A DNA stretch of 64,000 nt from a virus (IMGVR_UViG_2873571580_000001); one strand, 5' to 3'. Shown: positions 45,311 to 61,590, counted from the first letter of the stretch. The notes: generated from the sequence alone by a model not told the origin. A program made the numbers and translations.

Positions 45311-45385
45311 TGGTGGGCCCGGAAGAATTCGACCCCTCATCGTCCGGTTCGTAGCCGAAAGTCCTGTCCATTGAACGACAGGCCG
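45311..45385 (-). tRNA. Phage tRNA-Arg(ACG)-like gene, possibly degenerate
   Basis: Cloverleaf with anticodon arm TTCGG-CTACGAA-CCGGA and encoded CCA; C1:C72 mismatch and T-loop GTCGAAT. Confidence 0.7.
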
Positions 45386-51632: not shown

Positions 51633-51887
51633 TCAGGCCTCCTGTTGTTTGGGTTGGTTGGTGGCGCGGACTTCGCGCTGGAACTGGGCGCGATCAGTGA
51701 GCGGGATGTCATCGAGGCTCAGACGGCCATTGCTCACGGCCACCATTGCGTCAGCCAATCCAAGCTCAACGCGCTTCGAATCTGTGTATGCAAGCTGATG
51801 GCAGAGGCCGGTGGTTGTCCCCGCCTGAGCGGCGAAGTCGGCGCGGTCGGCAACAGCCAATGAGAGGTAATAGGTCTTGAACGACAT
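51633..51887 (-). CDS. cro: Cro-like repressor
   Basis: 84-aa HTH-like protein divergent from cI. Confidence 0.75.
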   Translation of the reverse strand: MSFKTYYLSLAVADRADFAAQAGTTTGLCHQLAYTDSKRVELGLADAMVAVSNGRLSLDDIPLTDRAQFQREVRATNQPKQQEA

Positions 51888-51896
51888 ACCCAACAC

Positions 51897-51966
51897 AATA
51901 CCTAAAGGTATTGAAAAATACAATACCCAAAGAACCATTTACACAAAAATACCTCAAGGTAACAAT
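51897..51966. promoter_or_regulatory. OR operators with PR and PRM
   Basis: Palindrome AATACCT-AA-AGGTATT (51897-51912) plus degenerate copies near 51922 and 51949; minus TTGTAT-17-TATTGT before cro; plus TTTACA-17-AACAAT before cI. Confidence 0.8.
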
Positions 51967-51972
51967 CTGCTG

Positions 51973-52692
51973 ATGGATGACTACGAACGACAGCAGGCGC
52001 TGCTTGCGAAGATCAGAACCCGCTTCTGTGGTGGTGTTGCGTCACGTCTTGCCGCAGCAATAGGCAAAGATCCGAGCTATGTGAATAGGCTGTTCTATCC
52101 GCGAGAAAAGAAGGGCGCGAAAGGAATCGGGCCGGAAATTCAGTTGGCGACCAAAAACGTCTTTGATCTACCTCGCGGCTTCTGGGATATGCACCCAGAT
52201 GAGGTATGGCCGGACGAGCCGAGTGGCGTCGTCATTCACGGAGACTTTGGAGCAAAGAAAAGTGCGCTCCCATTGAGAATTACACAATACAAGACAGGGG
52301 GTGCGATGGGTGATGGGCTGGTGCTCAGGGAACAACCGGGCGTGATTCAAGGGTGGGATGTGTCGCCGGAGTGGGTCCAAAAGAACCTGCCCTATCACAC
52401 AAGCTTTGAAAATTTGAGCATCGTGACGGGCTTTGGGGACTCGATGCTAGGCATGTTCCATCCCGGCGATCCGCTGTTGATCGACCACGGCATCAATATC
52501 TGCGACGTGGATGGCGTCTACTTCTTCCGCGTAGATGGAGAGGGCTTCATCAAGCGACTCCAGCGGATTCCTGGCGAAGGGATTCTGGTGATTTCCGAGA
52601 ACCAGAAATACCGCGACTGGACAATCAAACCATCAATGGATTTCGCGGTTCTGGGGAAAGTCTTGCAAGTCTGGAAGAGCGAAAAACTCTAA
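51973..52692 (+). CDS. cI: CI repressor (HTH + S24 peptidase)
   Basis: N-terminal HTH, GDSM serine, FIKRLQ lysine; near-leaderless start after PRM. Confidence 0.9.
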   Translation: MDDYERQQALLAKIRTRFCGGVASRLAAAIGKDPSYVNRLFYPREKKGAKGIGPEIQLATKNVFDLPRGFWDMHPDEVWPDEPSGVVIHGDFGAKKSALPLRITQYKTGGAMGDGLVLREQPGVIQGWDVSPEWVQKNLPYHTSFENLSIVTGFGDSMLGMFHPGDPLLIDHGINICDVDGVYFFRVDGEGFIKRLQRIPGEGILVISENQKYRDWTIKPSMDFAVLGKVLQVWKSEKL

Positions 52693-52793
52693 CCAACCAA
52701 AGGAGGAGAAGATGACGAGACTTCTTCGCTCCATCTGGAGATGGATGTAACCCCATCCGAGACACCATTTAATCGAATCGAAGGTAGGCAGAA

Positions 52794-53018
52794 ATGTACG
52801 AGTACACCTTGAGAGAACAAGCCTTGAGGCAGGTGCTTGGATGCATCTTTGAGGAGCATCCAAACAGGCCGCAGGCCCTCGCTCAGATAGATGGATTGAT
52901 CTCCCAGATGATGCGCACTGATGGGGTTGTCCATGCATCTCTCCTGCATGAAATAGAAGTCCTTCGCGCCGAACTGGGATGGACCGGGGCAACTGTTCCT
53001 GCTTCATTGCGAGAGTGA
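52794..53018 (+). CDS. Small hypothetical downstream of cI
   Basis: 74-aa ORF in the rex-equivalent position. Confidence 0.5.
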   Translation: MYEYTLREQALRQVLGCIFEEHPNRPQALAQIDGLISQMMRTDGVVHASLLHEIEVLRAELGWTGATVPASLRE

Positions 53019-53487
53019 ATTCGGCTTGCTTACTTGACTCACTGCTGTTCAGGCGTGAATGAGCAACGACGACGAAGCCACCCAAGGCCCAGCACTCAAG
53101 AAACCGAAGCAGCACGCGTAATCCCATCTGAAGTGCTGTTTGGGGACCTGGACGCAACGAAGCCACCCTTAAGATGGCTTTTTTATTTGCGGGTCAGATC
53201 GGCAAGTGCGACCGGTAACGATGGTTGACTTTGCCGATCCATCAGTGGCGGGCACAATTTGCCCATGGTTCCAGCAACACATTTCCAAGAGTATGTGGGC
53301 ACCCTCAGTGAAGATGATTTTGCGCTTTACTTGGAGTCGTTGCCCTCACCGCATCTGACCGAGCATGATGTCCTTTCGCTTGGAGAGGCCATAGTAATGA
53401 TTTTTGAGCCCCCATCGCCGCGGAAGCAAGAGCGGTCAATCATGGCAATTTGCGACTGAAATGAGGTTCTTGTCTACCGAGCTGCAA

Positions 53488-53905
53488 CATGCGCTGGTGT
53501 ATAGATGAAAACACACTCTCCTGCGCGGAGGGGGCTTTTTGGGCAAGCACGGTTTAAGGTCACTTAAAAGCCTACGGTGGGCGCAGGCGATTCATCCTGA
53601 TCCGCAGCCATAGACCGGAGGCCTATATGCCCTCTCCCCTATTCCTGCTCCGAGACTTTCCTTCTGGGAAGTCACCAAGAGCATGCTGTTCGCCACCGCT
53701 AGCAATCCACCACCGCAGAGACAAGAGAAGAAAACCCCGCCCGACAAAAGGAAGAAGAGGAGAAGCAGCAGCAAATCACTGGTCGAAACACCAGCACTAA
53801 GCATGATGTGACCTGATTTGCAACGGCAGCAGACGGGAAGCCATCGTTCGCGGTGGATTTTCTATTTGCAGTGCTGTAGCATGCGCTAGGGTATAGATGA
53901 AAACA
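53488..53905 (+). repeat. 26-bp direct repeats, each followed by a hairpin and T tract
   Basis: CATGCGCT(G/A)G(T/G)GTATAGATGAAAACA at 53488 and 53880 (24/26 identical). Confidence 0.8.
53627..53800 (+). CDS. Possible 57-aa mini-protein
   Basis: Preceded by ATAGACCGGAGGCCTAT, the same leader as 54468. Confidence 0.35.
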   Translation: MPSPLFLLRDFPSGKSPRACCSPPLAIHHRRDKRRKPRPTKGRRGEAAANHWSKHQH

Positions 53906-54074
53906 TGCCCTCCTGTGCCACCCTTCGGGGTGGCTTTTTTTCGCCTATTCATGCAAACCCTATCCGCATTTCAGGGGATGGCGCTAGTTCGCTGGTTGGC
54001 AGACACTAACAACAATGATCAATATTTTTAACAATTCTTGATCAGAGTTTTGCCAAATAGCTTCAGGAGGGGTC

Positions 54075-54374
54075 ATGTCCAAATTGCAATCCCTTGTTGA
54101 TCATCCGATCAACGCAGCACCGCCAGGACTCGCGTTTTGTTGGGCGCAAGAACTGCAATGCTCCAAGATGTTGGGTCATCCTCGCATTGACTGGAACAGC
54201 GCCCCTTCTCGCGCACATTGGTGGGCCATGGATGCAAATGGCGAAGCCCATTGGTTTGTTGATCCGCGAGTATCCGCGTTTGAGACATGTTGGCGATTCG
54301 AGGTTGCAGCAGCTCCAAATTTCGGATTTGTGGGTGACTATAGGCAGTCGTTGACTGAACGACCATCCAAGTAA
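54075..54374 (+). CDS. Small hypothetical protein
   Basis: AGGAGG RBS; DW..AP..A.WWA.D.NG.AHW motif. Confidence 0.65.
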   Translation: MSKLQSLVDHPINAAPPGLAFCWAQELQCSKMLGHPRIDWNSAPSRAHWWAMDANGEAHWFVDPRVSAFETCWRFEVAAAPNFGFVGDYRQSLTERPSK

Positions 54375-54467
54375 GTCTTTGTGCCATCCCCCCAGCAGGG
54401 GAACAATAGAGAGTAGTGTTATCGAAGGCGACCTATACCAGTTCGTCACAATAGACCGGAGGTCTAT

Positions 54468-54617
54468 ATGTTCACACACGATTTCTATGAGCGCTACTTA
54501 GCATTTTGGCGCGACATGTGGGCGACGCTTTGGATACCACTCAATCAGCTGGCACCGCACCCTGTAGATCAAGCTGATGCCGCGAGCAAAGAGCCGCAAG
54601 ACAAGCCTCAGAAATAG
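54468..54617 (+). CDS. 49-aa mini-protein (not in ORF track)
   Basis: GGAGG RBS, MFTHDFYERYLAFWRDMWATLWIPLNQ..., followed by CCCGCCGCGAGCGGG-T tract terminator. Confidence 0.55.
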   Translation: MFTHDFYERYLAFWRDMWATLWIPLNQLAPHPVDQADAASKEPQDKPQK

Positions 54618-54704
54618 ACCCCGCCAAGAATCAACACTCCACCCGCCGCGAGCGGGTTTTTTGTTGCCTGTCGAATACGAGGATACCCGAAGAATTGTAA
54701 CAAC

Positions 54705-54747
54705 ATGACCTTTAGGTATTGATAAAATAGATACCTAAAGGTATATT
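54705..54747 (+). promoter_or_regulatory. OL operators and PL-like early promoter
   Basis: ATACCTAAAGGTAT (54731-54744) and ACCTTTAGGTATT (54708-54720) match OR; TTGATA-17-TATATT. Confidence 0.8.
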
Positions 54748-55100
54748 TCATCCATCGCAGCAAACAAAGCAAAACGACCTCAGCAAGCGATACGAAGCCG
54801 ACAGCCAACAGGATGCAAAGGCGGGTCTAGCTTCAACGGGAGCGCAGCAGATGTTTGTACGCGGTGGGCATCAAGTGATCGAGCCGACTGCCCTACGGTC
54901 ATTAAAAACGTACTCAGGCCGATGTTGCTCACTCCGCCCGTGGAGTGTTCGTCCGGCCAAGCATCTGCAGGCATGGCTGCAGCTCTGCGACGGTGCCCAA
55001 CCGTGACCAGCAAAGTCGAATTGGTGAGGCAAACAGGGTTGCCAAGAACAAAAAATCCCAGCGTGCAAACGCCGCCAGCCCTTGGGCGAGATCAGGGGCA

Positions 55101-55138
55101 AAACAAAAGGCGCTTCACACGAGACGCCTTTTGTTTTT
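55101..55138 (+). terminator. Intrinsic terminator just before the RAMP-like gene
   Basis: AAACAAAAGGCG / CGCCTTTTGTTT stem with T tail. Confidence 0.7.
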
Positions 55139-55151
55139 CAAGGAGCAAGCA

Positions 55152-55721
55152 ATGGAGCAACTGAGGCTCAAGATCACTGGCACCGCACCACTGTTGATGC
55201 ACGCTGACACGCTGGCCAATCCGCTCAGTGTCGCGGCCAAAGCGCACAAGGAGTTGACTGCCAAGCGCAAGAAAACAGACGCTGACCATCTGGACATCGC
55301 ACGGTCGGAATTCCTCGCCGGCTGCTACTGGAGCGCGGAGGATGGTATCTATGTCCCGGGTCAGAATTTCGATGCCGCCTTTTGCGCTGGCGCGAAGCTG
55401 CAAAAGCTGGGCACGCACTGGAAACGTGGGGCTTTCGTGCTCGAGGATCGCGTCAAGCTACTGCACGATGGACCTGACACTCCCGATGCGCTATGGAACG
55501 AGCCCGCCTTTGTGGATTGTCGCGGGGTGAAGGTGGGCCAAGCCAAGGTGATGCGCTACCGACCGATCTTTTTGAACTGGGCGGCAGAGGTGATGCTGAC
55601 CATTAACCCTGAGGTGCTGAGTGTGCGAGAAGCACAGAAGGCTGTCAGTGACGCGGGTGCACTGATCGGTGTTGGGACTTACCGCCCGCGGTTCGGCCGT
55701 TTTGAGGTGAACTATGTCTGA
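55152..55721 (+). CDS. RAMP/Cas7-like protein (Vipr-like RNA-binding filament candidate)
   Basis: AAGGAG RBS; LKITGTAPLLMH, IYVPGQNFDAAF (cf. Csm3/Cas7 IPGSSLKGA) and C-terminal Gly loop AGALIGVGTYRPRFGRFEV; no cas genes nearby. Confidence 0.75.
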   Translation: MEQLRLKITGTAPLLMHADTLANPLSVAAKAHKELTAKRKKTDADHLDIARSEFLAGCYWSAEDGIYVPGQNFDAAFCAGAKLQKLGTHWKRGAFVLEDRVKLLHDGPDTPDALWNEPAFVDCRGVKVGQAKVMRYRPIFLNWAAEVMLTINPEVLSVREAQKAVSDAGALIGVGTYRPRFGRFEVNYV

Positions 55722-56166
55722 TGTCGTACTGCACCCAGCATGGAGGCAAGCTGTGCACGATTTTCTTGCCGAATTTAAGTATGGCGACATCGTTCCGCAT
55801 AGCTGGCTGGTAGCTCACTTTGGGCTGCCTCTGCCGGACGACACAATGTCTGCCGCTTCGTTCCAGGCCAGACAGTTTGAGTGGCTATCAAGCATCGAAG
55901 GCTTCAAGTCCACGCTGCTGCACGACCATCAGGTGCTATTGCAGTCCGTGCGCGGCGAAGGTTATCGCTGGGTTCCTCCCCCTGAGCAAACCCAGGCAGC
56001 CACGAAGGAGTTTGAGCGCGACGCGCGCAAGGCATTTCGCACCGCAGGCAATCGGCTCAAGAACATCCGGCACTTGGAGCTGACCGAGGATCAGCGGCGC
56101 ACGAATGTCGACGCGCTGGCAAGGCTTTCTCAGCTTCGTGGGACCACCCGCGCACTCCTCCGCTGA
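55714..56166 (+). CDS. Accessory protein, probable winged-helix
   Basis: Overlaps RAMP-like stop; LQSVRGEGYRW wing motif then basic helix; directly precedes the array. Confidence 0.6.
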   Translation: MSDVVLHPAWRQAVHDFLAEFKYGDIVPHSWLVAHFGLPLPDDTMSAASFQARQFEWLSSIEGFKSTLLHDHQVLLQSVRGEGYRWVPPPEQTQAATKEFERDARKAFRTAGNRLKNIRHLELTEDQRRTNVDALARLSQLRGTTRALLR

Positions 56167-56173
56167 CGTAGCT

Positions 56174-56397
56174 GCAAGCTCATTGTGAAGTGAGCTTGCG
56201 GATGCGAAAGCATCTTTGGCCGGGCATGGCGCAGTTAGGCAGTGTTTGGCAGGGCAGAGCCAGCCGCGGCAGTGCGCTGCTTGGCTTGGCATGGCAAGGG
56301 CTGAAAACAGCGGCCATCGTCTTCGAAAGAGGGGGATGGTCAGTGGGGTCAGCAATCATCAACCACCGGCCCGGCTTTTGCGCGGGCCTTTTCTTTG
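56174..56397 (+). ncRNA. Putative guide RNA with 17 GGY-NN pentamer units (vrRNA-like)
   Basis: Hairpins 56174-56199 and 56201-56214 (GAAA loop), period-5 array 56218-56302, further hairpins, terminator GGCCCG...CGGGCC-TTTTCTTT at about 56368-56397. Confidence 0.75.
56218..56302 (+). repeat. Period-5 array (NGY)-NN x17
   Basis: ggc cg|ggc at|ggc gc|agt ta|ggc ag|tgt tt|ggc ag|ggc ag|agc ca|gcc gc|ggc ag|tgc gc|tgc tt|ggc tt|ggc at|ggc aa|ggg ct. Confidence 0.95.
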
Positions 56398-56578
56398 GAG
56401 GTTTCGTGAACACCGTTCGATCATTCCTGAACTTAATTGGAATGCGCCGTCATTCCGCTGGCGGCATCAAGTCTCTGAAGTGGGCACTGCGCCTGCTCTG
56501 GCGCAACAACCAAACCAGTCGCCGTCGTTCGCATGTTGAGCGCCGCGCCGAAGTCGAACGCGCTGCACGTCAGCGTCT

Positions 56579-57256
56579 TTGAAAGATCACATGAAAAACA
56601 TCCACCTCAACACAACAATGAAAAGTGAAGTCATTTTGATGATGGCGTATGCGGCATATCGCCCAGGTGCGTCCGACGCTGATGCGCAGGCAAAGCTTCG
56701 TCGAGGCTTCGAGTCCATCGTTGACGAGTTGCGCCGCATTGAAGCAATCCCCAAGGCTGACATTGACGAGTTTGTCGCGGCCTCAAAAGCTGGCGCAGAA
56801 GTCGAACAACTCATGATCCATGCAGTCTTGTTCGCCAACATGCTGCCGGACGTTGACTACTTTGCGGCTCTGGTGGGTGCAGGCTTCGGTGACGATGAGG
56901 AAATCATGCAAGGCCCACCGATTGCGGTCAACGAGAAGTTCATGGAGGCCGGGAACGCCTTGAAGGCCTTGCGCGATCAACATGGTGACGATGCGGTTTG
57001 TTCTCCAGAAGGCGACAGGCTTTTCATGCAGTTGCTGGAGAACGCTCCTCCCGAGTTCATGGACATCGTGAGCAACGAAGCCAAGGAACGCGGTCTACTG
57101 CCTGAAACCAAGTACGTGAACGATGCAGGCGAGCCCGTCTATTCCGCTCAGCAGCTCGCCGATCAATTAGGCGTACCGCTTGAACAAGTTGAGGAGGACA
57201 TCAAGCGACTCGTCGGCGACCGCCTTCCGGTAGGCAAGGTGCATCAACTGCAGTAA
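56579..57256 (+). CDS. Early hypothetical, acidic, C-terminal HTH-like
   Basis: VYSAQQLADQLGVPLEQV motif. Confidence 0.6.
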   Translation: MKDHMKNIHLNTTMKSEVILMMAYAAYRPGASDADAQAKLRRGFESIVDELRRIEAIPKADIDEFVAASKAGAEVEQLMIHAVLFANMLPDVDYFAALVGAGFGDDEEIMQGPPIAVNEKFMEAGNALKALRDQHGDDAVCSPEGDRLFMQLLENAPPEFMDIVSNEAKERGLLPETKYVNDAGEPVYSAQQLADQLGVPLEQVEEDIKRLVGDRLPVGKVHQLQ

Positions 57257-57407
57257 GCCAAAGATCAGCACGGAAAACCTTCGTGGGTTGGGCAAATGTC
57301 GTCCAACACACTTTTGAGTAACTCAACAGTCCCCTACCCGTGACGGAAGTGTGCGTCGCAATTTCTTGGGAATTAACGGATATTCAGGACCAGAAAGGAA
57401 AGCAGCA

Positions 57408-58325
57408 ATGAGCAACATCGCCCCATCCACCCCCACACCGGTCACCATGACCAGCCTCGAAATCGTCGATTTCATCAACGACCTTCGCAAGGAAGATGCA
57501 CACGCTGCAGGCGCGGCATTCCCATCTCAAGGATTCGCCAAGCTGGAGCACTCCGACTTCATGAAAAAGGTGCCTGAAGTACTGGAGGAACGTGCCGGAA
57601 TTTTTTCCGCCACGTACCAAATCCCTGGCCCGAATAGCTCCAGCCGTACAGCGCCCTGCTACCGCTTCCCGAAGCGCGAAGCCTCGCTGATGGCGATGAG
57701 CTACAGCTACAAGATCCAGGCCAAGGTGTGGGACCACATGACGGCACTGGAGGAAAAGCTGAACTCCCGCGAGTCTGCTGCACTGGAGCAATCGACAAAG
57801 CCCGCGCGCGTTCGTGGCCGCACGCCGCTGGAGCAAGTGAAGATCATCAACTTCGTGGGGGATGCGTTGAAGGATGTCCCCGGCGTGCGCCTGGGCCGTA
57901 TCGCCGCCGCCAAGCTCAAGGCCTTTGCCGAGCAAACGGGCCTCGATTTCAGCGACTTCCGCCGTGCGCTGCCACCCTTGCCGCTGGACCAGATGGTGCA
58001 CCTGAACCCCACGCAGATCGGGGCGCGCGTCGGCGAGTTGACCGGGCGCGGGAAGATCAGCGGTCAGGCCGTCAACAAGATTCTTCTCTCGCTCGGCCTG
58101 CAACGCAGGGTGGAGGATGGCTATGTGCTGACCGAGGCGGGCACCAAGTACGGTGAGATCCACGATTACAAGGCCGAGAACGATCACTCAGGCTTGCAGA
58201 TTGACTGGTATGAGTCGGTGGTTTCACTGGTCCGGGACAACCTGCCAGAAGCAACCGGGAAGAGCAGCAAACGCAGCATGAAGCTGCGCCCGGGTCCCGG
58301 CGAGCCGCGGGGAGCCATGTCGTGA
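57408..58325 (+). CDS. Rha-family regulator / antirepressor-like protein
   Basis: TMTSLEI..., PCYRFPKREA.LMAMSYSY...A.V.D motif. Confidence 0.75.
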   Translation: MSNIAPSTPTPVTMTSLEIVDFINDLRKEDAHAAGAAFPSQGFAKLEHSDFMKKVPEVLEERAGIFSATYQIPGPNSSSRTAPCYRFPKREASLMAMSYSYKIQAKVWDHMTALEEKLNSRESAALEQSTKPARVRGRTPLEQVKIINFVGDALKDVPGVRLGRIAAAKLKAFAEQTGLDFSDFRRALPPLPLDQMVHLNPTQIGARVGELTGRGKISGQAVNKILLSLGLQRRVEDGYVLTEAGTKYGEIHDYKAENDHSGLQIDWYESVVSLVRDNLPEATGKSSKRSMKLRPGPGEPRGAMS

Positions 58326-60044: not shown

Positions 60045-60268
60045 CAACCGCAACGAAAGACCCACGCCCAGTAATCACCGCTGCCCGGTTCGTGACTGTC
60101 GAGTTGGCTGCCGTGATGACAGGGCTGTCTGCAGGAGCCATTCGCAAGCGCATCGAGCGCGGCGTCTGGCTGGAAAACAAGGAATGGCGACGCGGTCCTG
60201 ACGAACGCGTCTGGATTGACACCAAGGGGATTGAGGCATGGGTACTTCAAAAATCGGCGGCGGCGTAG
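60041..60268 (+). CDS. xis: Excisionase (prophage B)
   Basis: FVTVELAAVMTGLSAGAIRKRIERGVW; homologous to 16449-16679. Confidence 0.85.
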   Translation: MTTATKDPRPVITAARFVTVELAAVMTGLSAGAIRKRIERGVWLENKEWRRGPDERVWIDTKGIEAWVLQKSAAA

Positions 60269-61437
60269 AGATTCGGGAAAAGAGCATCCGACTCTTTTTC
60301 GTCTGGAACGGCACGCGCTACCGCGAAACGCTGACCATCGGCGGGAAGGTGGCAATGCCCACCGCCGCCAACATCAAGCACGCCCACCGCACTGCGCTTG
60401 AGATTCGCAACAAGATCAACGTAGATGCATTCGTGCTGGCCGAATACTTTCCGGACTCGCCACGAGCGAAGCAGACCATAGCCACTGACGAGCGAAATTT
60501 TGGCCAGTGGTGCGAGCTCTGGCTTGAAACGAAGGGGCGTCTTGCCAAGAACACGCGCGACCAGTACAGGTGCGCCCTCGAAATCTGGAAGTCGCTCTAC
60601 GGCGCCGAGTCGGCGATGAAAGACCTCACGCACGCGGTCATTGCCGCCAAGGTGGGCAACACGCCGTGGAAGTCACCGAAGCTCCTGAACAACTACCTGA
60701 TCAGCTTGCGCGGTGTATTCACGCTCGCCGGTCGCGAGCTGAAGATCGAAGACCCCATGGACGGGATCGAGAACAGCAAGCACCAGCCCCCGCAGCCGGA
60801 TCCACTCTCGCCCGACGAGATGGAGCAGGTTCTTGCTCACCTGCGCGAGAAGCTTGATGTGCGGGCATGGGCCTATTTTGAGTTCGCCTTCATGACCGGA
60901 ATGCGCCCAGAAGAGTTGATCGAGCTCCGCTGGGGGGATGTCGACTGGAAAAGCCGCACCATCCGGGTCGAGCGCGCCCGAACGGCTGGCGAGGTAAAGC
61001 CCCTCAAGACCTACAACGCGCGTGACGTGGACATGGTCAGCCGGGCCATTGCGGCTTTGGAAGTCATGAAACCGTGGACGATGGTGGGCAGCAGCGGGCC
61101 AGAGGATGGCCCGAAAGGTCGCCAGATCTTCGAGAACCCCGGCACCGACAAGCCGTGGCACGACGAACGCAGCCAGCGCGACACCTACTGGCGCCCCGCC
61201 CTGCGAGCTGCCGGGATTCGCTGGCGCCGGGCGTACCAGACGCGGCACACCTACGCGACCAATGCACTAGGGGCCGGGGTGAATCCTGCCTACATCGCCA
61301 GGCAGATGGGGCACAAGAACGCGAAGATGCTTTTCACCGTCTATGCGAAGTGGATCGATGGGGCTGACCGTGGCCGGGAACTGGCAAAACTGGAGGCCGT
61401 GCTCAGAAACGAAAAAACCGCCCAGAAGGCGGTTTAA
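60238..61437 (+). CDS. int: Tyrosine integrase (prophage B)
   Basis: FMTGMRPEEL, RR.YQTRHTYA, QMGH...YAKW; adjacent to att/tRNA. Confidence 0.95.
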   Translation: MGTSKIGGGVEIREKSIRLFFVWNGTRYRETLTIGGKVAMPTAANIKHAHRTALEIRNKINVDAFVLAEYFPDSPRAKQTIATDERNFGQWCELWLETKGRLAKNTRDQYRCALEIWKSLYGAESAMKDLTHAVIAAKVGNTPWKSPKLLNNYLISLRGVFTLAGRELKIEDPMDGIENSKHQPPQPDPLSPDEMEQVLAHLREKLDVRAWAYFEFAFMTGMRPEELIELRWGDVDWKSRTIRVERARTAGEVKPLKTYNARDVDMVSRAIAALEVMKPWTMVGSSGPEDGPKGRQIFENPGTDKPWHDERSQRDTYWRPALRAAGIRWRRAYQTRHTYATNALGAGVNPAYIARQMGHKNAKMLFTVYAKWIDGADRGRELAKLEAVLRNEKTAQKAV

Positions 61438-61512: not shown

Positions 61513-61539
61513 TTGGTAGGCGCGATTGGACTCGAACCA
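61513..61539. repeat. att core in tRNA-Val 3' end
   Basis: Identical to 17881-17907. Confidence 0.97.
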
Positions 61540-61590
61540 ACGACCCCCACCATGTCAAGGTGGTGCTCTAACCAGCTGAGCTACGCGCCT
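61514..61590 (-). tRNA. tRNA-Val(GAC)
   Basis: Reverse complement AGGCGCGTAGCTCAGCTGGTTAGAGCACCACCTTGACATGGTGGGGGTCGTTGGTTCGAGTCCAATCGCGCCTACCA. Confidence 0.98.

Follow-up and report, generated by a model that had tools for sequence, protein, structure and literature searches.

VIPR (Viral Interference Programmable Repeat) systems were described in 2026 (10.64898/2026.04.26.720920, 10.64898/2026.04.26.720927, and 10.64898/2026.10.15.759431), and the tested examples come from a lytic phage of E. coli and from a prophage of Pseudomonas. According to these preprints, the parts of a VIPR system are a minimal Cas7-like protein (Vipr), usually one vap gene, and vrRNAs composed of GGY/NN repeats followed by a structured tail. 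The system binds double-stranded DNA (dsDNA) by pairing of the NN dinucleotides, with every third target base skipped, and silences competing phages and satellites. In natural targets, the NN dinucleotides fall on codon positions 1-2 and the wobble base is skipped (VIPR preprints, bioRxiv 2026). Two type II systems are the closest described ones, that of Escherichia phage SUSP1, a Felixounavirus, and that of a Pseudomonas fulva prophage, the vrRNAs of which are reported to target resident prophages, mainly their lysis-lysogeny regulators (same preprints). Here, we analyzed a viral DNA sequence of 64,000 nucleotides, IMGVR_UViG_2873571580_000001 (hereafter, the window, i.e., this whole stretch at its full length). 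Based on sequence and structure comparisons, the cassette at positions 55,152 to 56,397 of the window is almost certainly a type II VIPR system that consists of vipr, vap1, and one vrRNA.

An earlier note, made from the window sequence without database searches, had proposed a VIPR-like system at this place, or else a new variant with an accessory protein. The description of VIPR that it gave is accurate when compared to bioRxiv 10.64898/2026.04.26.720920 and.720927, and the assignment to such a system is supported by Vipr homology, the RAMP fold, vap1, and the period-5 array. The suggested variant did not hold up: the accessory gene is a vap1 homologue in the standard type II layout, and therefore the accessory protein is no new feature. 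Nor is this a new kind of system, because VIPR was already described in the 2026 preprints.

Compared to SUSP1, the window locus shows the same basic organization, with a homologous vap1 directly downstream of vipr, a vrRNA of YNNGG repeats with a structured tail, and neither cas genes nor a CRISPR array. In both cases the target (predicted for the window) lies in the coding sequence of a rival mobile element, with the wobble base skipped. The two differ in that SUSP1 is a lytic Felixounavirus with four vrRNAs, whereas the window cassette belongs to a temperate betaproteobacterial prophage and has one. Furthermore, the SUSP1 tail is modelled as a pseudoknot, in contrast to a GCTG-N4-CAGC hairpin plus a variable stem in the window; the G-loop reads GVGDW in SUSP1 and GVGTY in the window; and SUSP1 targets a satellite, whereas the predicted target of the window is a sibling prophage. 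The Pseudomonas fulva system, which was compared by its description, is prophage-borne and follows the same biological logic as that proposed here. Its vrRNAs, like those of LESphi2, lie upstream of vipr, whereas those of the window and the Medea1/Acidovorax clade lie downstream of vap1.

The 189-aa protein, in which the earlier note had recognized RAMP-like motifs, matched SUSP1 Vipr (PDB 36pp_D) with an E-value of 1.8e-41 (phmmer; residues 1-187 on 1-188) and about 42% identity over the full length. In SUSP1, the GGY is held by H17, R138, D177, W178, and R179 (SUSP1 Vipr preprint, bioRxiv 2026). The alignment to the residues named in that paper showed that H17, K33, R39, K82, and G87 of SUSP1 are kept in the window Vipr, and that R137, Y177, and R178 are the conserved equivalents of SUSP1 R138, W178, and R179. 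The G-loop motif GxG/CxYRPRFGRF was also found. An AlphaFold (AF2) model built from 27 homologues had a predicted local distance difference test score (pLDDT) of 72.6, with low confidence in the thumb (residues 126-134) and the G-loop (172-181), as expected in the absence of RNA. When this model was searched against the PDB using Foldseek, the top matches were exclusively Csm3/Cas7-type RAMPs (probability 0.96-1.0), including 6ifn_E, the query by which VIPR was discovered (VIPR preprints, bioRxiv 2026). Thus, structure prediction, one of the checks that the earlier note had put forward, returned the RAMP fold. No Pfam family was found for the 189-aa protein or for the 150-aa protein encoded next to it.

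Even though Vipr has the same RAMP fold as Cas7/Csm3, the backbone of class 1 CRISPR-Cas complexes, and by homology would share with them the use of one protomer per guide repeat unit and the thumb-driven periodic base flip, the cassette is not a CRISPR-Cas member. Unlike in class 1 systems, the guide is genome-encoded, has a 5-nt period, and is predicted to read two of every three target bases, and the locus lacks a CRISPR array, Cas1, and other cas genes. A search for Cas1 (PF01867) in the 100%-complete host genome gave no match while the positive controls worked, and no CRISPR-like direct repeats were present in the 52-60 kb region of the window, which bears out the absence of cas1 and of a CRISPR array reported in the earlier note.

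The open reading frame (ORF) of the accessory gene overlaps vipr by 8 nt. Its product showed 27% identity (BLASTP, E 4e-14) to that of the gene after vipr in the SUSP1-type Felixounavirus, 60% to the counterpart in Pseudomonas phage Medea1, and 37% to that of LESphi2. In the AF2 model (pLDDT 89.7), the N-terminal domain resembles a winged helix and leads into a long helical hairpin, and OmpR/PhoB DNA-binding (winged-helix) domains matched the model weakly in a structure search. This prediction agrees with published work, in which type II Vap proteins are described as winged-helix-like. In the stored genome annotation, vap is called 13 codons short (137 aa).

The array starts 49 nt after the vap stop codon on the strand of vipr and contains 17 consecutive 5-nt YNNGG units, at least four such tandem units being expected of a type II VIPR locus. 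All 17 units have a pyrimidine at Y, whereas the second G is kept in 16 and the first G in 12. Both ORFs and this array, bracketed by hairpins and with a terminator-like end, were thus confirmed where the earlier note had placed them (Table 1). Using a purpose-built YNNGG scorer, we obtained a score of 11.0 for the array, compared to <4 elsewhere in the window and ≤5.0 elsewhere in the 6.2-Mb genome (both strands, i.e., 12.4 Mb scanned). Tandem Repeats Finder did not detect the array because two of the five positions vary in each unit. Alignment of 15 vrRNA tails revealed two hairpins with compensatory changes at 13 of 17 predicted pairs (RNAalifold). This layout, with the GCTG-N4-CAGC hairpin directly after the array and then a second hairpin of variable sequence, is shared by the clade, and on the 5' side a GATGC-N4-GCATC hairpin or a close variant adjoins most arrays of the related loci (L001, L003, L005-L009, and L031).

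To place the cassette among its relatives, we found 686 Vipr homologues in a large protein database (nearest, 77% identity), the nearest ones from Acidovorax, Rhodoferax, Variovorax, Burkholderia, and other Proteobacteria. In the family of the host, vipr is rare (2 of 401 sampled genomes), and megablast of the locus against phage records gave no match. Ten related loci were examined (Medea1, LESphi2, Acidovorax facilis, G281, four IMG/VR contigs, one ENA contig, and Felixounavirus). All ten contain 1-5 YNNGG arrays beside vipr-vap on the vipr strand, with different NN in each; a lack of adjacent period-5 arrays in homologues would have spoken against the proposal of the earlier note. Among named relatives, Medea1 (Vipr 68% identical) and a prophage locus of Acidovorax facilis (77%) are the nearest, with the proteins of both left unannotated as hypothetical. 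In both loci, vipr, vap, and the array stand in the same order, with the same kind of 5' hairpin and tail, as in the window. They differ from it in an acidic G-loop residue (CEY) and in the first G, which is present in 100% and 94% of their units, respectively. In addition, Acidovorax facilis has four vrRNAs compared to one in the window, and the Medea1 cassette comes after an Arc/Rha antirepressor module, whereas that of the window comes after a PL-like promoter. The same immI-like arrangement, with the vipr-vap-vrRNA cassette following an Arc/Rha-antirepressor module, was observed in the ENA contig (L031) as well as in Medea1 (L001); in the window, an Ant/Rha-like gene (57351-58325) lies downstream of the cassette instead. 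From these arrangements, the cassette appears to be mobile as one unit among antirepressor-type regions of temperate phages.

The gene content of the window points to a lambda-like prophage, likely integrated at tRNA-Val. The primase/helicase and replication initiator genes on the minus strand are followed by cI, about 2 kb without long ORFs, and the VIPR cassette, after which come a 58-aa ORF, a 225-aa ORF, the Ant/Rha-like gene, and the integrase gene beside tRNA-Val. The true cI start is probably later than the annotated position 51877. In lambda, operators stand in an OR/OL arrangement at cI and PL. In the window, the same 14-bp operator occurs at cI and over a near-consensus promoter about 400 nt upstream of vipr. 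Six operator half-sites were counted compared to 1.0 expected, and none of 100 shuffles reached six. At the level of sequence, this supports the placement by the earlier note of the VIPR genes at the head of a putatively CI-controlled early operon, which would be of the PL type.

Table 1 Features of the VIPR cassette and of the surrounding prophage (positions in the window)
Feature	Position	Strand	Basis
Primase/helicase and replication initiator	47.4-50.2 kb	-	
CI-like repressor, S24 peptidase domain	51877-52692	+	phrog_4, phrog_6201; Pfam Peptidase_S24 (E 1.1e-14)
Two 14-bp palindromic operators (ATACCTAAAGGTAT type), cI 5' region, OR-like position	51898-51960		
Two copies of the same 14-bp operator, flanking/overlapping the PL-like promoter	54708-54719, 54731-54744		
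PL-like promoter, TTGATA-17-TATATT	54719-54747	+	near-consensus
13-bp A-tract/U-tract hairpin, intrinsic-terminator-like	55100-55142	+	-23.4 kcal/mol, z -4.2
vipr, 189 aa, minimal Cas7-like RAMP	55152-55721	+	PDB 36pp_D match, phrog_4652, AF2 and Foldseek
vap1-like gene, 150 aa	55714-56166	+	homology to Felixounavirus, Medea1, and LESphi2 genes; phrog_5926; AF2
11-bp hairpin, vrRNA 5' region	56174-56199	+	folding
Clade-conserved GATGC-N4-GCATC hairpin, vrRNA 5' region	56200-56214	+	motif comparison, folding
vrRNA guide region, 17 YNNGG units (16 GGYNN in the published parse)	56215-56299	+	
GCTG-N4-CAGC hairpin, vrRNA 3' tail	56300-56311	+	alignment and RNAalifold
13-bp covarying hairpin, vrRNA 3' tail	56312-56341	+	alignment and RNAalifold
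CAGTGGGNTCAG motif, found in several terminal vrRNAs	56342-56354	+	motif comparison
Terminator-like hairpin and U-tract, cassette end	56368-56396	+	
Small early ORF, 58 aa, GTG start, Arg-rich C-terminus	56406-56582	+	the phage's own homologue of the target gene
Integrase	60238-61437	+	phrog_1
tRNA-Val, likely attachment site	61514-61590	-	ARAGORN

The 17 NN dinucleotides of the guide were decoded and the whole genome was scanned with 0-3 skipped bases. Under the 1-nt-skip rule, a sole outlier with 26 of 34 matched positions was found among 12.4 million positions (G000:C1:3401694-3401743). Skips of 0 and 2 gave at best ≤23/34, a skip of 3 recovered the array itself only, and shuffled unit orders reached 22-24/34. 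Guide units 1 and 17 are unmatched at this site, and the core units 2-16 match at 26/30, compared to a shuffled maximum of 20-22, which gives an extrapolated expectation of about 2e-4 (the null declines about 6-fold per step). The matched site is the start codon region, comprising the first ~15 codons, of a 59-aa ORF, in which each NN covers the first two bases of a codon and the wobble base is skipped, as reported for natural VIPR targets. The element that bears the site is a sibling prophage on the same chromosome. Its replication module is 98.2% identical to that of the window prophage over 5.7 kb, and the structural and early-left genes are 76-93% identical, whereas its immunity region is unrelated and lacks the shared operator. 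By this comparison, the two prophages are heteroimmune rivals in one chromosome.

The phage's own allele of the target gene lies directly downstream of the terminator of the guide and matches the guide at 13/30 core positions, compared to 26/30 in the sibling allele. Nucleotide homology between the window and the sibling resumes at 56441, just beyond the guide footprint, and the own allele is recoded, so that it would escape the guide. Four further alleles of the target ORF from ENA metagenomes matched at 20-26/30, and the alleles jointly satisfy all guide positions save a single base of codon 9. Probably, the exact target is an allele outside the sampled ones, or a few mismatches are tolerated by the guide. 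On this evidence, we regard the small ORF of the sibling prophage as the probable, albeit not firmly established, specific target of the guide.

Several observations weigh against an active system directed at this site. Over all 17 units, the match amounts to 76% identity, under the published VIPR cut-off (NN identity ≥0.8), and the published GGYNN parse of 16 units (26/32, 81%) is borderline by the same standard. The 15-unit core was picked post hoc, after the match had been seen, and neither a perfect target nor a better match was found in the genome or in pattern searches of the genus, IMG/VR, and JGI metagenomes. Neither ESM Atlas, PHROGs, nor Pfam gave an assignment of function to the target ORF. 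The cassette contains a single vrRNA, compared to 1-5, mostly 2-4, in nine related loci scanned. The G-loop residue equivalent to SUSP1 D177 is Thr176 (motif GVGTYRPRF), although a Glu or Asp, mostly within CEY, stands at this position in all 118 readable sequences of the 120 nearest homologues. Finally, transcription from the PL-like promoter would meet a strong terminator-like hairpin before it reaches vipr. The end of this hairpin is 14 nt before the vipr start, just before an AAGGAG ribosome-binding site. It looks like a bidirectional terminator and was absent from the related loci examined; it might serve in attenuation or antitermination, or form the 3' end of a leader RNA.

The searches behind the missing perfect target included the guide pattern with ≤3 mismatches in eight genomes of the genus, a 10-unit guide sub-pattern, and one allele pattern of the target ORF in JGI metagenomes, each without a match. 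A family-wide search with the 225-aa neighbour returned distant homologues only, with small-ORF starts that match at 19-20/34. One exact match to a 9-unit sub-pattern in IMG/VR (L024) was rejected as chance, since it falls in an unrelated AT-rich phage that matches the guide at 21/34 overall. Similarly, when the decoded guides of eight related loci were compared to the window genome and to the related loci, identities of ≥80% were reached for short guides only and were chance-like.

The system may be active while its true target is an unsampled phage or element, with the 26/34 sibling match arising by chance. The identity below the cut-off, the four internal mismatches, the post hoc choice of the scored region, and the report in published work of no self-contig matches ≥80% favour this explanation. 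We nevertheless consider it unlikely, though well worth keeping in view, because the match is a single outlier that appears under the correct skip rule only. Moreover, the site coincides with a start codon within the homologous operon of a sibling phage, and its frame is the one that skips wobble bases; further alleles of this ORF match too and supply the mismatched positions; and the own allele diverged exactly over the guide footprint.

The G-loop residue bears on how the repeats are read. In SUSP1, a hydrogen bond links D177 to the first G of GGY, and silencing is lost in the D177A mutant (SUSP1 Vipr preprint, bioRxiv 2026). The Vipr proteins of LESphi2, G281, and Felixounavirus are likewise acidic at the Thr176 position. 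In the window, Gly-Thr replaces the Cys-Glu found in nearly all of the clade, and five of the six nucleotides over the two codons differ, implying that the change is not a recent point mutation. The first position of the GG is also degenerate in the window guide (A or U in 5 of 17 units), with G in 12/17 units compared to 264/268 units in eight related loci (Fisher p 4.5e-5). A link between Thr176 and the degenerate first G is suggestive only, because in Felixounavirus the first G is present in 57/66 units although the Vipr there has Asp. The two features could reflect protein-repeat co-adaptation or early decay. As a tentative proposal, the window Vipr may be a natural specificity variant, in which protein and repeat scaffold co-evolved within type II toward a YNNNG-type repeat; the Gly-Thr pair would have removed the carboxylate that in SUSP1 recognizes the first G, and the guide would tolerate A or U there.

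Decay would make the cassette a disabled VIPR remnant that has the right parts but has lost silencing. The Thr at a position that is essential in SUSP1, unique among the ~120 nearest homologues, suggests this, as do the loss of the first G in 5/17 units compared to 4/268 in relatives, the single vrRNA where most relatives have 2-4, and the lack of a perfect target. However, both ORFs are intact and full length, all other RNA- and DNA-contacting residues are kept, and the tail and the 5' hairpin are intact. The losses in the array are concentrated at one position while Y and the second G persist, whereas random decay would spread them; the extent of the codon change also differs from a recent point mutation; and the guide retains a significant in-frame match to a rival prophage. 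A remnant is therefore improbable. Finally, it is hardly conceivable that the period-5 tract is coding sequence (a 130-aa ORF, 56190-56582, plus strand) or a chance G-rich repeat rather than a guide: even though this open frame traverses the whole vrRNA array into the small ORF and Rfam has no family for the array region, conserved coding cannot have a 5-nt period, this architecture recurs beside every vipr homologue examined with variable NN and covarying flanking hairpins, relatives carry 2-4 tandem copies without such an ORF, and the array is unique in the genome. Gene callers could annotate the 130-aa frame as a protein, masking the guide RNA.

For the type II VIPR system of the window, the following sequence of events, activity included, is likely as a whole, and we infer expression, timing, processing, ribonucleoprotein (RNP) assembly, and silencing from homology. 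The region 56174-56396 would be transcribed and yield a vrRNA of ~200 nt or shorter, by homology to SUSP1. One Vipr protomer would occupy each 5-nt repeat, sequestering GGY and presenting NN, and the resulting filament would bind dsDNA with two of every three bases paired with the guide and block transcription there, presumably assisted by the winged-helix-like Vap1. The cassette would probably be on at prophage induction or infection and not in the lysogen, because the PL-like promoter bears the same operators as the cI region. The most likely natural target would be the first ~15 codons of a small gene in the early-left operon of sibling phages, where silencing would shut the early-left operon of the rival when both prophages are induced.

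Some additional features were observed in the two prophages. In the sibling, the slot that corresponds to the VIPR cassette (L010:10051-12739, minus strand, equal to G000:C1:~3402050-3404738) contains other genes. One of them encodes a Ser/Thr-kinase-like protein of 353 aa that has an HFDIKPDN motif, and its upstream partner encodes 151 aa; ORFs of 138 aa and 106 aa are also present. These genes may be another defence or counter-defence cassette. The 400-nt leader that separates the PL-like promoter from vipr contains, on the minus strand and thus opposite in direction to vipr, a full-length match to Rfam RF02917 (Burkholderiales-2 RNA; 54918-54988; 83.9 bits, gathering score 67.9, E 1.3e-13). 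The ~2-kb region from cI to the PL-like promoter (52700-54700) has a lower G+C content (48-54%) and no ORF >138 aa. Several hairpins in it, on both strands, resemble terminators, and its position corresponds to the rex/moron region of lambda. The prophage also contains a gene for tRNA-Arg (ACG), beside the replication module (45311-45385, minus strand).

The general picture of VIPR is unchanged by the window locus. What it adds is a lambda-like prophage of a Comamonadaceae-like betaproteobacterium as a carrier of type II VIPR. In addition, it is a small natural system for testing, in which a single guide has a single predicted target and the attacking and the targeted prophage are heteroimmune siblings in one chromosome. 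The attacker's own, recoded copy of the target lies beside the guide, and prophage-versus-prophage silencing at co-induction is directly testable. The odd G-loop residue, together with the degenerate first G, offers a natural handle on how Vipr reads its repeats. If the window Vipr is indeed a specificity variant, the repeat-recognition pocket would be evolvable and could yield orthogonal Vipr/vrRNA pairs.

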